NCBI GenBank assembly: GCA_964632485.1
Contig: CAZWDO010000030.1
Location: 1 to 35,254 of the forward strand
DNA length: 35,254 nt
Reading direction: 5' to 3'
Origin: an uncultured bacterium
Lineage (GTDB): Bacteria; JAGOEH01
Made by a program: the position numbers and the translations under genes. The notes beneath the pieces were generated by a model. The model was not told the origin of the DNA. It saw only the letters and a list, made by a program, of their open reading frames with translations, and ran no database searches. Each line of letters opens with the position of its first letter. Positions within the stretch are counted from its first letter, which is position 1. Below are positions 18,535-24,788 of the stretch, in pieces.

Positions 18535-21080
18535 TCACTTTCCCACCATCACAAACGCTCCCCAGTAAAATGGGATATCGCGTCCGTAACGTTTCAATAC
18601 GATCTGTCTTATTTCCTGCTGGGCATTTCGAAACGAGGAATATTTATCTTTCGTTTTCAACCAATTCTGATAAAACAACGTCATCAGTTCCTGGGTCTCT
18701 TGATCCGGAACCGACCACAAACTCATCATTACAGCCTCGGCGCCAGCAAATTGAAATGCCCGACGCAATCCGAATACGCCCTCGCCGGCTTGTATCTCTC
18801 CCAATCCGGTTTCACATGCGCTCAGTACAACCAATTCAGTTCCCCGCAAATCCAAGTTAGCAGCTTCATACGCTGTGAAGACTCCATCATCCATATCACT
18901 GGATGATATATCGTTATTCGCTCCAGAAAAATATAAACCACTCCGAAGCAACGGATTTTCAATATATACCGATTGCAATTGATCATGATTTAATCCTGCC
19001 ATAAATTTGGAATAGTCAATTTTTTGCTCCGGCATAAAAAAGCCATGGGTCGCCACATGCAATACTTTAGCAGACTTTACCGCCTTCATATTTTCCTCGA
19101 TTGCTTGAAGACCGGTATAAACTTGCACCGGAATGCGATTTGAACTCAGCAAATAGTGAATCGATTCAATTTCTCTTTGAGTGCCGGGTAAATCGCCGAG
19201 GGGGCTTCGCTTTAAATCATGTGAATAAATGGACCGGGTATCTGCGGCTAATTCGATGTCTCCACCATGGCGACTCTGACGAATGGCGTTTGTATCCGCC
19301 GAAAATCGCGGATCGCCGAACAATATCCAATAACGATTCATTTCGGCTGAAGGATCGGTTTTTAGTATATCTTTCGTGCTGGATACATAGCGTAGTTCAT
19401 GAACATCGTTGAGAAAGCGACCCTGTGGATTTACCAGGATGCCCAGCGCGATTTGATTCAGTAATCCGTCGGGAGAAACAAACACCCGCTTGCTATTCGA
19501 CAGATAAGATTCCAGGGGTTTCCAGATAAAATCGTAGGTGTGGCTGGCGGATTTGAAATCCTTATCGGTGCGTTGGTTGATTTGCAGTTTATATTCGGTA
19601 TCGATTAACCATTTGAGATCGGATTCCGTTCCCAGCGTTACCAGTAAAGGATGATCCTGAATTTGAGGCGTAATGATCAATGCGCAATAAAGCATGGAAT
19701 CCGGAGATTTTGGGAAAGCAATAAATTCAATTGCCGCCTCATCGGAATGCAAGTGATCGCGGATATTTTTCCATTGAACGGTTTGCAACTCTTTTTCAGC
19801 TCTGTAAGCGCTGGATATTCTGGATAGTTCCTTTTCCAGCTCATCGGATTCCTGTTCGAGGATTTGGAGCTGTTGCTTGTATAATTCGACATTGTCAATT
19901 GGATTTGAGTAGAGATACGCCAATTGTTCCCGTTTGGATTTGAGGCGATTTAATGTCTCAATAGCCGTCGAATCGCCGCTTTCCAGGATACTGCGAACCA
20001 TGGCGCTTTGGCTGGTGAGAATGATCCCTTTATGCCACAAAAGCAGGTTGTATAGTTTAGTAATAATGGATGGGTTGGTTTTGGAGTATTCATATGCAAA
20101 CAGATAGTAATTGTAAAAATAACCATTGACTGTTTTCAGAAAATCTTGTTTGCTTTTTTCTGATGAATACATAAAAAGACGTTCAAATTGATTAGATAAA
20201 TTTATCAAAACACGGTTAAATAGCGGTTCCGCTTCTACATATCGGCCTTGAATTCGGTATAACTCGGCTAGATTATTTAAACTTAATGCCACATCGGGAT
20301 GTTCGGAACCAAGTATTCTTTCTCTTATTTCCAATGATCGTTTATACATGGGTTCCGCTTCTTCGTAGCGGCCTTGATCGCAATATAGTAAAGCCAAATT
20401 ATTCAAACTTGTTGCCACATCCGGATGATTAGAACCAAGTATTCTTTCTCTTATTTCCAATGCTTGTTTATACATGGGTTCCGCTTCCGCGTAGCGGCCT
20501 TGGATTCGGTATGATTCGGCCAGATTATTTAAACATGTTGCCACATCTGGGTGGTCCGGACCCAATACTCTTTCAATAATTTCCAATGCTTGTTTATACA
20601 TGGGTTCCGCTTCTTCGTAGCGGCCTTGATCGCAATATAGTAAAGCNNNNNNNNNNNNNNNNNNNNNNNNNNNNNNNNNNNNNNNNNNNNNNNNNNNNNN
20701 NNNNNNNNNNNNNNNNNNNNNNNNNNNNNNNNNNNNNNNNNNNNNNGTTTATACATGGGTTCCGCTTCTTCGTAGCGGCCTTGATCGCAATATAGTAAAG
20801 CCAAATTATTCAAACTCAATGCCATAAACGAAGGATACTGATTTATTGATTTCTCAGAAATTTGTAACGCCCATTTATAGATTGATTCTGCCTCTATATA
20901 TTTATTTTGATCAGTATACATATTTGCCACACTATTTAGACTTTCAATTACATCAAAAATTTTCCCTTGAACTAATAGTTCTTCAACTTTCTCTCTGTAT
21001 AAATCCCGACATTCATCTTGAGCTATTACATTAATACTGAAGCTCAAAACAATCAAGATTGTAATTAATATTGATTTCAT
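18535..21080 (-). CDS. Exported TPR (kinesin-light-chain-type 42-aa repeats) plus CHAT caspase-like protease; one gene spanning the assembly gap
   Basis: Signal peptide MKSILITILIVLSFSINVIA; HPDVAxSLNNLAxLY..QGRYxEAEP repeats; CHAT dyad LHVATHGF and VLSACETG; FYWGAF terminus. The sequences on either side of the gap duplicate each other. Confidence 0.85.
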
Positions 21081-21697: not shown

Positions 21698-21715
21698 GGG
21701 GAGCTGCCGCTCCCC
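21698..21715 (-). other. GC-rich hairpin with a GGCA tetraloop (candidate DGR target cruciform)
   Basis: Minus strand GGGGAGC-GGCA-GCTCCCC, with no U tract on either strand; 57 nt past the FISUMP stop codon once the intron is removed. Confidence 0.5.
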
Positions 21716-21772
21716 AAACCTCTCGCTTAAAAATTCAAATAGACAAATTGATAAATAGTCAAATAATCGCCA

Positions 21773-23696
21773 GTCGAGTAGGCAAAGGCATTTCAGCCTA
21801 AGCCTCTCACAGAACCGTACGTGATAGTCTCCCATCATACGGCTCTTCCAGACAAACTCAGCCAGTAAAGCCATAACTCCAATGCACAAATGTATCCGGA
21901 TAATATTTTACCATGCGTTTCATCCATCTATACGATTTTGAATAGGTCTTCAACTTGTACTTGTTTCTTGCCCATTTCGCTATCCTGATGTTTAACAACC
22001 GAAATACTCTTTGCAGTTCTGATATCCGATGCTTTCCATAATAATTTATCCAGCCTCGTATCTTCGCTGACAGGGCTTTTGCTATGTCCTGAAGACTATG
22101 CTTTACCCATCTCTGGATTGTTAATTCCCTGAGTTCTTTAAGTATCCGTTCTTCACTCTTCTTGCTTATTGCCGGTCGATAACCCCAGAACTTCTCTCCA
22201 TCTGATTTTAAACATATCCTCGGTTTAAAGGTGTATCCAAGAAAATCAAATGCCACTGGGATTCTCTTGTCCTCCTTGTAATACCTCGCTGTCCGATAGC
22301 AATATACTATCTTTGTCTTTTCCGGATGGACTTCTAATGAGTAATTTTTCAACCGCTGCTTCACTTTTTCCAATATGAAGTTCGATTGTTTTATACTCCG
22401 TGTGTGAATGACTATGTCATCCGCATACCGTTCAAATACTATCAGTGGCTGGGTCGTTGTTATCCATTGGTCAAAGGCTTCATCCAAATAAAGATTGGCT
22501 AACAACGGACTTATTACGCCTCCTTGTGGAGTGCCTTTTTCTCTCTTCTCCTTTGTGCCATTCCTTCTCTGTATCGGCGCTTTTAACCATCTCTCGCAAT
22601 ATAGCAATATGTGGCGCTTACTGGTGTACTTCCGCAATATCTTCATCATCTGTTCATGGTTTATGTTGTCAAAGAATCCTTTGATATCTAAATCTACTAC
22701 ATACCACCTCTCCCAACTGTACTTCGCACATTGTTCCAACGCCTGATGGGCGCTTTTTCCCGGGCGATAACCAAATGAACTGCCATGAAAGTAAGGTTCT
22801 ACTCTCTGCTCTAATTCTTCTCTGATTACTTCCTGCGCGACTCTGTCTAAGATTGTTGGTATGCCCAATATCCTTTCTTTGCCGTTTCCTTTGGGGATGG
22901 TCACCTCTTTCACCGCTGGCGGATAATAACTGCCGCCGGCTAATCGATTCCACAAAGGATACAAGTATTTGCGTGGATTCGTTGCTATTTCCTCCATCCC
23001 TATTTCATCTACTCCCCTCCCTTTTCCGCCTTGCTTTATCTTCTTCCACGCTTTCCATACCTGCGCTTTACTTACTGTCTGCGTTTTCGTATCTAACTCC
23101 TCAATCATCCTCTGTTTAAGTTGTTGCTCTTGTTAAACACTGTCCGGTGAAGCCCTTCGCTCCATTCTCATTACAAGAACTTCTTCACTACTACGGCTTC
23201 ATCCGCCACTCGCTAATGCCTCTCTACTTTTGACCTCACAGTTTCTCTGCTTGTGTCTTTTCGTTTTACATCATCAGCGAGCTTCCCCAGTTCCATATAC
23301 AAGCCTTTATGCAATTCCTGCTGTCTTTATGCCGAGCGTCAACACAGTCAGTTTCTCTTCCAGGTCACTTCTGTGCTTTTCCCAAAATAGACTGAGTTAT
23401 TTTGGTTTCTAACGCCGTCTATGTCAATTTCGACACCTCTGCGACAGTTCACTTGCGTTCAGCTCTTGCATAATTACCTGAAATGCTTCTTTCAGCATTC
23501 CTTTTCCCTGTCCGCTCAATACCTCTGTCTTTGGACAAAAGCACCGCAGGGCGGTTTGGCAGATTCTCCTGGTAACTCCTGCCGGTGGGTCAGTTCTGCA
23601 AACCCTTCTGTTTACAGTCCACTATCTTGTATTATAGTTCACACATCTGATTTATTAGTAGTGTGCCTCTACTATCATTTGTGTTTCTGGGCGCAC
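21773..23696 (-). mobile_element. Complete group II intron (IIB-like, class D-type RT, no En domain), 1924 bp
   Basis: 5' end GTGCG at 23696; domain V GAGCCGTATGATGGGAGACTATCACGTACGGTTC; domain VI ending CCTACTCGAC at 21773; EBS1 stem-loop at 23382-23405. Confidence 0.93.
21858..23108 (-). CDS. ltrA: Group II intron reverse transcriptase/maturase
   Basis: GVD, LWNRLAGGSYYPPAV, IPKGNGKERILGIPTILDRVAQ, GYRPGKSA, DLDIKGFFD, GTPQGGVISPLLAN, RYADD, FDFLGYTF, maturase IRGWINYY; no HNH domain. Confidence 0.95.
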   Translation of the reverse strand: MIEELDTKTQTVSKAQVWKAWKKIKQGGKGRGVDEIGMEEIATNPRKYLYPLWNRLAGGSYYPPAVKEVTIPKGNGKERILGIPTILDRVAQEVIREELEQRVEPYFHGSSFGYRPGKSAHQALEQCAKYSWERWYVVDLDIKGFFDNINHEQMMKILRKYTSKRHILLYCERWLKAPIQRRNGTKEKREKGTPQGGVISPLLANLYLDEAFDQWITTTQPLIVFERYADDIVIHTRSIKQSNFILEKVKQRLKNYSLEVHPEKTKIVYCYRTARYYKEDKRIPVAFDFLGYTFKPRICLKSDGEKFWGYRPAISKKSEERILKELRELTIQRWVKHSLQDIAKALSAKIRGWINYYGKHRISELQRVFRLLNIRIAKWARNKYKLKTYSKSYRWMKRMVKYYPDTFVHWSYGFTG

Positions 23697-24788
23697 TCAG
23701 TCCTTGACGCAACGAACAGAGAACCCGTACCGGTAGCCGTAAATGCTTAGAACGGCGTAGTGGCCATAGCTGGATAAATATAGATACCACGCATTGTAGT
23801 CAGGATATGGCGTTGCTGCCCAAAACCGAGCATAGCCAGAAATACCATAGAAATAACCACCGTGGGTGCGGCAACCCCCTAACAGCGCATTGAATCCCGA
23901 TGAGCCGCCATCAATCAGGGCGTTATAACGGTCTCTATTATTTGTCCCAACCGCATCCAGCAATTCCTGAAACTCTTCCTCGGTGGGTACATGGAAGCCT
24001 TCCGGAGCGATATTTCGAGAGTCCGTCACCGCGTACCAATTGTATAAATTTCCATACATCTGTGCATTGGCTTCACTATTATTATATGCGCACAATGCTC
24101 CGGTAGCCAAACCCTTCCAGTCAGCTTTATCTGTTACATTCGGGATTGGATCGCCATTTCGATAATGTGTTACCTTTAAATTTTCAGCCATCCATAGCTG
24201 ATTACCAATCATTACAACTGAGTACACATTACCATCAATATCAGTTACCGTAGTTGGCCACGATTCTGTTGTAAAGATCATATCATCACTATTTGTCATA
24301 CCGCCAGAATTAGTGGCTTTTACTCGGTAATGATACGTCGTGTTATGCGTCAATCCCGATAAACCCACCGAAACCGCAACTTCATTCGCGCCATTGGCAA
24401 CCGGGCTTTGGCTGGCATTGATCACCGTCCCGTATTCCGTCGTCACCCCGTATTCGAATACTACTATTGTTATGCCACCATTGTTTGGATTGACCGTCCC
24501 GTTCAGGGTCGCATGCGTTTGGGTTATATTTGTCGCCGCCAGGGTCGATACCACCGGATACGATGCAAACTGGATGCTGTCAATATCGCCCGCATTATAA
24601 TCCACAGTCGATAAATCGGTCTTATGTACTCGAATCGTGTTGGTCGTGGGATAGGTTACTTCAGTGAAATCATCGAAATAGTTAACAACCTTAGTCCCAT
24701 CGGTTTTGAAAATCACTATCGATTTGGCCGCCAGAATGCCCAGCATCGCCAATACCAACGCCATCAACCATATAAGGGTTCTACTCAT
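23697..24788 (-). CDS. Exported protein with an FN3-like domain and a C-terminal FISUMP (Fibrobacter succinogenes major paralogous) domain
   Basis: AGGAGG RBS; signal peptide; ATLNGTVNP..FEYG..YHYRVKATN; DIDGNVY..VMIGNQLWMAENL, YGNLYNWYAV, PEGFHVPT, GFSVRCVKD*. Confidence 0.9.
   Translation of the reverse strand: MSRTLIWLMALVLAMLGILAAKSIVIFKTDGTKVVNYFDDFTEVTYPTTNTIRVHKTDLSTVDYNAGDIDSIQFASYPVVSTLAATNITQTHATLNGTVNPNNGGITIVVFEYGVTTEYGTVINASQSPVANGANEVAVSVGLSGLTHNTTYHYRVKATNSGGMTNSDDMIFTTESWPTTVTDIDGNVYSVVMIGNQLWMAENLKVTHYRNGDPIPNVTDKADWKGLATGALCAYNNSEANAQMYGNLYNWYAVTDSRNIAPEGFHVPTEEEFQELLDAVGTNNRDRYNALIDGGSSGFNALLGGCRTHGGYFYGISGYARFWAATPYPDYNAWYLYLSSYGHYAVLSIYGYRYGFSVRCVKD

Follow-up and report, generated by a model that had tools for sequence, protein, structure and literature searches.

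Group II introns that very probably home to the stop codon of FISUMP surface-protein genes

The contig CAZWDO010000030.1 (35,254 nucleotides, assembly GCA_964632485.1) of an uncultured bacterium of the lineage JAGOEH01, called the window in the following at its full length, carries a group II intron directly behind the stop codon of a gene of the FISUMP (Fib_succ_major) surface-protein family. We conclude that this intron very probably belongs to a lineage, here named clade A, which homes to the last codons and the stop codon of FISUMP genes, and that the window intron is an intact and probably mobile member of this lineage. Clade A is a new specialised lineage; the kind of element itself is known.

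The window intron reads the end of its host gene

The host gene is an open reading frame (ORF) of 363 aa on the minus strand (23697–24788), which matches the profiles PF09603 (Fib_succ_major; E=1.5e-38, 133.4 bits against a cut-off of 33.9) and TIGR02145 (FISUMP; 112 bits against a cut-off of 41.65). It constitutes the 5′ exon of the intron and its product has the C-terminus GFSVRCVKD. The 3′ end of the gene reads GTC AAG GAC TGA with the stop codon at 23699–23697, and the first base of the intron, 23696, follows directly with the sequence GTGCG (23696–23692). The CVKD-stop is the same whether the transcript is spliced or unspliced. An earlier note on the window, made from its letters, had let the intron start immediately behind the stop codon and had described its site as a cognate one at which the protein stays intact; both statements agree with our results.

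The intron is complete and comprises 1924 nt (21773–23696, minus strand; 5′ GTGCG to CTCGAC 3′). Its 3′ end is placed at 21773 (GAC at 21775–21773) because the match to the Rfam model RF00029 ends there, and the GTGCG start and the GAC end are in accordance with the GUGYG/AY boundary rule. The RF00029 match (21773–21847, minus strand; 69.5 bits against a cut-off of 40, model positions 1–77 of 77) covers the domains V and VI, for which the AGC triad in the 34-nt domain V and the bulged branch-point A 7 nt from the 3′ end were read directly from the sequence. A part of domain I is recognised at 23476–23604 (minus strand) by the model group-II-D1D4-2 (RF01999; 65.3 bits against a cut-off of 36, E=4e-11). 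Domain IV harbors the ORF of the intron-encoded protein (21858–23108, minus strand; 416 aa), a reverse transcriptase (RT) with a YADD motif and a maturase (X) domain (TIGR04416 377 bits against a cut-off of 300, PF00078 or RVT_1 7.4e-44, PF08388 or GIIM 8.8e-10). The profile scan of this protein gave RVT_1 and GIIM only and thus no DNA-binding/endonuclease (D/En) domain. The best match of the RT among solved structures is the GsI-IIC RT (E=3.4e-46). Outside the ORF 673 nt of the intron make up the ribozyme, and the 588 nt from the 5′ end to the ORF start fold far better than shuffled sequences (z = −5.14); in the RNAalifold consensus of 27 relatives compensatory changes are found in 66 of 96 pairs. 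In the assembly, which has 4.45 Mb in 66 contigs and is 97.95% complete, one copy of the intron is found. Judged by these sequence features the element is probably an intact and mobile group II intron devoid of an endonuclease.

The exon-binding site 1 (EBS1) lies in a hairpin at 23382–23405 (minus strand; CCAAAATA / ACTCAGTC / TATTTTGG), which is seen in the minimum-free-energy fold as well as in the RNAalifold consensus. Its 8-nt loop ACTCAGTC carries TCAGTC (23395–23390), which has no second occurrence in the intron and is exactly complementary to GACTGA, the Asp codon and TGA stop codon at exon positions −6 to −1 (23697–23702, minus strand). This hexamer is the intron-binding site 1 (IBS1). 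For the covariation analysis we used an alignment (A2) of 27 copies with 20 nt of 5′ exon and 520 nt of intron each. Between IBS1 and EBS1 98.6% of the cells are paired and two-sided changes occur in six of six pairs. In a replicate of 41 metagenome copies 213 of 223 EBS1 cells are paired, compared with a mean of 190.6 and a maximum of 200 in 500 permutations; these 41 were taken from 52 metagenome junctions after exclusion of five near-duplicates, five copies with short exons or in tandem, and the copy L025. The EBS1 assignment is secure, and the pairing of this stem–loop with GACTGA, as put forward in the earlier note, is confirmed. A candidate for EBS2 is TTGAC (23423–23427, minus strand), which is complementary to GTCAA at exon positions −12 to −8 (IBS2, 23704–23708, minus strand). 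This pentamer is unpaired in the consensus fold and drawn into a small local hairpin in the single-sequence fold, and 68.9% of the IBS2/EBS2 cells of A2 are paired. When both helices are taken together 84.5% of the cells are paired. Shuffled data give 72.9%, the observed level being reached in none of 500, and sliding the partners by one to three columns gives no more than 46.9%.

The EBS1 helix has a length of 6–7 bp, and at unusual exons the matching change is found in the intron. Thus, EBS1 reads ATAACC opposite the IBS1 GGTTAT in L022, TAAACC opposite GGTTTA in L110 (here with GGCAA/TTGCC as IBS2/EBS2), GTTGTT opposite GATAAC in L015, GTTATC opposite the same GATAAC in L092 and L111, CTAGTT opposite AATTAG in L016, TTAATT opposite AATTAA in L114, and TTATTC opposite GAATAA in L032. 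The commonest EBS1 is TTAGTC, found in 20 of 67 rows and facing GATTGA (6), GACTGA (5), GATTAA (4), GATTAG (3), GACTAA (1) and GAGTAA (1). 5′-UUAGUC pairs with 5′-GAYURR, because C and U are both tolerated opposite its G, and A and G opposite each of the two U residues at its 5′ end. A single hexamer can therefore serve the two Asp codons together with any of the three stop codons. TCAGTC, the all-Watson–Crick fit to GAC-TGA, is found in the window row only.

The target site of clade A

Relatives of the intron were chosen by RT sequence only, as the best 80 of 100 from contigs of one genome per species and the best 80 of 258 from metagenome contigs. A maximum-likelihood tree of 58 full-length RTs of the first set, from which 15 loci with broken or masked ORFs were excluded, falls into two clades with a support of 100 each in the Shimodaira–Hasegawa-like approximate likelihood ratio test: clade A with the window (22 rows) and its sister clade B (36 rows). 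By best tblastn hit 118 of all 160 loci were assigned to clade A and 42 to clade B. We then asked how often the end of a FISUMP gene precedes the intron, using the motif [RK]C[VILM]x[DNE] with 0–2 further residues and a stop codon, ending 555–720 nt upstream of the RT start, a definition which makes no use of hand-called junctions. In clade A the motif is present in 61 of the 79 evaluable copies, the window included (18 negative, 14 with a partial region, 26 with the region absent), whereas in clade B none of 36 is positive (four partial, two absent). Elsewhere in these sequences the motif occurs 34 times in 1.65 Mb counted on both strands, corresponding to 0.0034 per stretch of equal size. 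The idea that the lineage is specialised on the constant tail of FISUMP genes stems from the earlier note; tabulating the 5′ exons of the relatives had been set as its test beforehand, and the FISUMP tail turned out to be enriched in the intron's own RT clade.

By our own reading of the junctions the 18 negative copies are mostly variants of the same site. In four (L015, L026, L092, L106) the tail is present and the ORF extends into the intron, three (L079, L081, L112) lack the R or K in front of a CxKD-stop or CxKE-stop tail, and L025 has the tail in front of an internally deleted intron. The insertion lies within the tail in L018 and L133; L160 has a FISUMP domain upstream and an ambiguous junction, L091 sits behind another intron copy, and in L029 and L033 the 5′ part is swapped for other DNA. 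The other four are considered below.

The family of the upstream genes is also evident from profile searches: PF09603 matches 20 of the 22 upstream ORF segments with E≤0.001. The two segments without a match, L047 and L077, are short ORFs ending with SVRCVKD and SVRCIKD, and in L047 a frameshifted FISUMP domain is located farther upstream. When nine upstream segments were scanned singly against the Pfam cut-off, three were above it, four were below (21.5–28.5 bits), and two gave no match. The RTs of the relatives are 59–78% identical to that of the window and the upstream FISUMP segments 18–41%. The hosts belong to Bacteroidota, Chlorobiota, Ignavibacteriota and the small phylum of the window itself. 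The nearest relatives, with 74–78% RT identity, are found in Bacteroidota bins and metagenomes, which suggests transfer between phyla. The phylum of the window is sparsely sampled, and searches scoped to its order and phylum covered only three genomes. One locus, L009, stems from a 2.7-kb contig binned as 'uncultured actinobacterium'; its RT and exon are identical to those of L016 from a Bacteroidia bin of the same series, and it is probably a mis-binned contig.

The exact point of insertion relative to the stop codon was examined at 83 hand-placed clade-A junctions. In the majority, including the window, the intron follows directly after the stop codon. One subclade is inserted 1 nt after the stop codon and its EBS1 pairs with positions −6 to −2, and L015 and L111 are inserted just before the stop codon so that the 3′ exon starts with TAA. 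In six copies (L019, L021, L023, L031, L144, L146) the insertion is between positions 1 and 2 of the stop codon: the exon ends with T and the intron starts with GAGCG, and therefore the unspliced RNA reads TGA. When spliced, L023 and L144 restore TAA and L146 restores TGA at the same stop codon position, and the 3′ exon of L019 likewise starts with AA. In fact the genome of L023 has an intron-free paralogue (L164) with the sequence GAC TAC TAA TTCATTTGATTTATTTG, which matches the ligated exons of L023. Nearly all copies with both exons encode the same C-terminus spliced or unspliced. In a few copies the ORF continues into the intron, as in L015 (15 additional residues when unspliced), L092 (7 additional residues) and L106 (7 additional residues unspliced and 2 spliced). 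A special case with respect to the site is L018 (3341), which is inserted in the tail of the FISUMP domain at GATTAA, a mimic of the Asp-stop sequence in another frame, with positions 1–167 of the 187 Pfam profile positions upstream. The copy L119 has the same 3′ exon as L018, but its 5′ exon ends with the canonical CIKD-stop.

The 5′ ends of the introns vary, and 22 of the 83 junctions do not start with GUGYG. The pentamers are GTGCG (38), GTGTG (23), TTGTG (15), GAGCG (6) and ATGTG (1). The TTGTG copies, which have U instead of the nearly invariant G1, are L007, L028, L032, L047, L084, L086, L087, L089, L091, L093, L095, L104 and L116–L118. Of the 15 TTGTG copies 13 have an intact RT ORF, as do all six GAGCG copies. 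In L111 the intron start ATGTGA leads to a stop two codons into the intron. Speculatively, what counts in the TTGTG copies might be that a U at intron position 1 puts a U directly after the stop codon. It is possible, and we put it forward tentatively, that the host's stop codon has shaped the ribozyme; the wobble-tolerant EBS1, the GAGCG copies and the U1 copies point to this. A further variable trait is a peripheral insertion of ∼90–110 nt located ∼100 nt from the 5′ end (columns about 160–260 of A2), which is present in most relatives of the main clade. It is absent in the window intron (positions about 85–105), in the GAGCG copies and in the subclade inserted 1 nt after the stop codon.

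The sister clade B (L034–L082 and L163) has RTs which are 48–57% identical to that of the window and a 5′ end of the type GTGTGTCCTGCG, and its members never sit at FISUMP ends. Flavobacterial copies, for example, L068–L072, are found ∼9 nt after a hairpin GTAACAC...GTGTTAC (CCTCTTGCT, directly followed by the intron) and some of the remaining copies are found behind a TGTTAGG..CTGGCT motif. Clade B thus displays a class C-like target behaviour together with a large ribozyme.

Signs of repeated entry, a suggested mechanism and rival explanations

Several observations bear on the question whether clade A is entering this site repeatedly. The 5′ end of a further intron copy is found at the start (within 2 nt) of 12 of 86 clade-A 3′ exons, compared with none of 33 in clade B, and L091 and L151 are head-to-tail tandem copies. 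In five host genomes the FISUMP domain matches number 4, 14, 67, 18 and 30 and the places with a clade-A RT 1, 1, 2, 3 and 1. The genome with 67 domain matches (G005) harbors L023 and L025, which belong to different subclades and are each located behind a FISUMP gene; in G006 all three clade-A RT places are just downstream of a FISUMP match. Intron-free FISUMP ends are present in host genomes as well (L164, L176, L192). In addition, one contig of a marine metagenome (run X2), which is unlikely to be the sample of origin, joins 21767 to 23692, skipping 1924 nt, exactly the length of the intron. At the joint 3 nt fit on either side, and the five letters GTGCG and TGGCG differ at two places. On thin evidence this contig may be read as an intron-less allele or a paralogue.

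The anatomy of the intron, the pairing of EBS1 with the exon, the clade-wide site, the unchanged protein, the remnants and tandem copies, and the empty sites are directly supported. On this basis we suggest the following mechanism. The intron would be transcribed by read-through from the FISUMP promoter as a tail of the mRNA, because no promoter can be recognised in it and it is positioned between the stop codon and a GC-rich hairpin. After folding of the RNA, EBS1 (UCAGUC) and probably EBS2 (UUGAC) bind the 5′ exon at GACUGA and GUCAA, a pairing which the covariation shows, and the intron would be excised with the help of the maturase. A particle of lariat and RT may then reverse-splice into DNA having the sequence of the ligated exons, that is, into other FISUMP ends of the same or another genome, as the distribution of the copies suggests. 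As the intron protein has no endonuclease, nascent strands at the replication fork would serve as primers for the cDNA, which is established for endonuclease-less introns according to the passages of PMC4424553 that treat them. The site suits the intron, first because selection maintains the tail RC(V/I/L)(K/R)(D/N)-stop across a family with 4 to 67 domain copies in a genome, and second because an insertion at or after the stop codon leaves the protein the same, spliced or not. As UUAGUC reads Asp followed by any stop codon, one intron could enter every paralogue irrespective of its stop codon.

It could be argued that the association goes back to one ancient insertion into an ancestral FISUMP gene, followed by duplication and descent or by joint transfer, and that no homing takes place today. 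A clade-wide association could in principle stem from one old event, and the broken RT ORFs (12 of 82 copies; 11 clade-A rows were too short for the tree) would fit decaying residents. Nevertheless, we consider such an origin quite unlikely. The upstream FISUMP segments have diverged much further than the RTs, the hosts are spread across four phyla, EBS1 follows the sequence of each individual exon, and unoccupied paralogues and a skip of the intron length have been found. Furthermore, the tandem copies and the 3′ exons that consist of the 5′ ends of older introns show repeated entry at the same site, and two subclades coexist within one genome. Recruitment by the host is a different matter: the intron, lying within the transcript of a surface-protein gene, might regulate the stability of the mRNA 3′ end, surface-protein expression or alternative C-termini. 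An intron in a surface-layer gene of Clostridium tetani reportedly gives rise to alternative C-termini, and in L015, L092 and L106 the ORF does enter the intron. As splicing makes no difference to the C-terminus in nearly all copies with both exons, as only one to three RT places face 4 to 67 domain matches per genome, and as many copies are decaying with no conserved host-side feature depending on the intron, we hold recruitment to be very improbable.

A third explanation connects the intron with diversity-generating retroelements (DGRs). Domains of the Fib_succ_major/DUF1566 type are DGR targets, accounting for 14% of the DGR survey in the part of PMC5758913 concerned, and the stretch in which such variable regions are located ends at the intron site; on this view the variable region of a DGR would be targeted at its 3′ end by the intron, and both retroelements would be functionally connected. 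The earlier note had likewise called the gene family possibly DGR-diversified. The genome of the window, however, has one RVT_1 match, the intron RT, and a blastn search with the last 200 nt of the gene gave no template repeat, its only match being the 38-nt conserved tail of the paralogue C48. Thus neither a DGR RT nor a template repeat for the FISUMP gene was found in the window's genome, and the other loci were not searched for DGR RTs. The suggestion of the earlier note was not borne out here, and we regard a functional link as extremely unlikely.

The following points weigh against homing of clade A to FISUMP ends, or against parts of it. Splicing and mobility of the window intron are predicted from its sequence, and a search for RNA runs containing this stretch gave none. 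The window's genome has a single intron copy and six FISUMP matches. Two other genes with a VKD-stop, C48 (GTCAAGGACTAA) and C43 (GTGAAAGATTGA), are unoccupied; the C43 site would by our own reading form six of six pairs with the EBS1 of the window; searches for intron remnants 3′ of these two genes gave chance-level short matches only. The 83 junctions were picked by hand from the candidates of a regular expression. Four of the negative clade-A copies (L022, L028, L110, L152) sit at sites without FISUMP evidence. The counts overstate the number of independent events, since the loci are related to each other and include near-duplicates (L116/117/118, L086/087, L137/138, L145/148, L009/L016). 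With regard to EBS2, 110 of 158 cells are paired in the 41-copy replicate against a permuted mean of 95.9, a value which equals the maximum of the 500 permutations (110), and a register-free test was not significant (mean helix 4.59 compared with 4.22 for shuffled exons, maximum 4.70). The pairing of TTGAC with GTCAA proposed in the earlier note is thus borne out as regards presence and complementarity, but its covariation is moderate (∼69%) and the EBS2 assignment is plausible but weak. The intron-free junction named in the same note, GGACTGA followed by TGGCGATT, has a consistent counterpart in the X2 contig with its skip of 1924 nt. This contig is, however, only one of 679 nt with a depth of 5.4, 37 nt on the shorter side of the joint and ∼92% identity over 75 nt of 3′ exon, and may represent a paralogue.

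Flanking sequence, known intron classes and implications

Downstream of the intron, from 8 nt behind the 3′ splice site onwards, the 3′ exon carries tandem octamers of the type TATTTGAC (21740–21765, minus strand), the only such array in the window's genome. Octamers of the form (T/A)ATTTG(A/T)C in three to five tandem copies are found between some FISUMP stop codons and a GC-rich hairpin in several phyla, with or without an intron: in the window, in L164, L176 and L192, and in the 3′ exons of L006, L007, L023, L038, L098 and L103. We had considered that the array is a passenger of the intron, as no second one exists in the window's genome and several intron copies are followed by such arrays. 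This was rejected, since such arrays also follow the intron-free FISUMP stop codons of L164, L176 and L192 and are therefore part of the 3′ untranslated region of the gene and not of the intron. A pattern of two octamers was no more common than its reversed control in five genomes, and searches in the order and phylum of the window, which covered three genomes, gave no match to the arrays. The GC-rich inverted repeat of the window, GGGGAGC-GGCA-GCTCCCC (21698–21715, minus strand), was read from the sequence; no T-run follows it and it was not called by the terminator scan. Farther downstream the translation of the ORF 20529–21080 (minus strand) contains a run of X (a masked or N stretch) within a TPR-repeat gene, which continues into a 688-aa TPR/CHAT-like ORF (18535–20601).

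The closest known system is the IIB1 lineage of proteobacteria, whose members insert at start and stop codons. In the passages of PMC12584367 that describe it (citing Michel et al. 2007), this lineage is monophyletic and resides in housekeeping genes, the groEL introns are inserted between positions 2 and 3 of the stop codon, changing UAA to UAG, and the introns have a CL1 RT with an endonuclease domain, a subdomain Ia of 300–700 nt, and a length of about 3.2 kb. Like the groEL introns, clade A is a monophyletic lineage tied to the stop codon, leaves the protein unchanged, has tandem integrations, and would be transcribed from the host gene; its junctions are found before, inside, directly after and 1 nt after the stop codon. 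The clade-A copies inside the stop codon (GAGCG) are inserted between positions 1 and 2 and rebuild UGA. The targets differ, being single-copy essential genes of proteobacteria in the case of IIB1 and the tail of multicopy, fast-diverging surface-protein genes of Bacteroidota and allied phyla in the case of clade A. The window intron is only 1.9 kb long, its RT of 416 aa has no C-terminal endonuclease, and the 588 nt between its 5′ end and the ORF offer no large 5′ insertion comparable to subdomain Ia (the relatives have at most about 110 nt extra). Because these two defining features are missing, the window lineage is not a member of IIB1.

Class IIC introns, which are inserted behind terminator hairpins or in integron attC sites, resemble the window intron in landing harmlessly outside of coding sequence at a recurrent motif and in having an RT without endonuclease, and the best structural match of the window RT is of this class. 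In the relevant parts of PMC3753933 and PMC4424553, IIC introns are described as recognising a DNA hairpin, with a short EBS1, no EBS2, and a ribozyme of about 400 nt. In contrast, the window intron reads a coding tail with an EBS1 helix of 6–7 bp, has an EBS2 candidate, and possesses a ribozyme of 673 nt, and assignment to class IIC was rejected for these reasons. The endonuclease-less IIB-like classes (D, E, F, g1–g4) share with it an RT/maturase devoid of endonuclease and the location of EBS1 and EBS2 in domain I. For IIE and IIF the parts of PMC3753933 on these classes give a ribozyme of 450–700 nt and an EBS2 which is less important than EBS1 in self-splicing. The size of the window ribozyme and the weaker EBS2 agree with this, a likeness to IIE/IIF which is one of description only. 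The passages of that source on the classes D, E, F and g name no specificity for FISUMP genes or stop codons. In the literature we found no link between group II introns and FISUMP or Fib_succ_major genes, though supplementary neighbourhood tables could hold one; Waldern et al. (2020) mention neither 'Bacteroid' nor 'Fibrobacter' nor 'stop codon', and their supplements may list such neighbourhoods.

The target strategies of bacterial group II introns that are listed in the pertinent part of PMC4424553 comprise long homing sites, terminator hairpins and attC sites. To these the lineage adds another one, in which ordinary base pairing is aimed at a stretch that is held constant by selection within a fast-diverging gene family, at no cost to the host. 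One specialised stop-codon lineage was known before, in proteobacterial housekeeping genes. For genomics, contig breaks and mis-annotated 'retron-type RT' genes are likely to occur at the FISUMP genes of Bacteroidota and related metagenome bins. Clade A also offers a system for asking how the specificity of an EBS is balanced with its breadth through G–U wobble across three stop codons, whether ribosomes terminating at the 5′ splice site affect splicing, and how variable the GUGYG 5′ end can be. If the introns with variant 5′ ends still splice, nearly invariant nucleotides of the catalytic core would evolve under the constraint of translation termination in the host gene.

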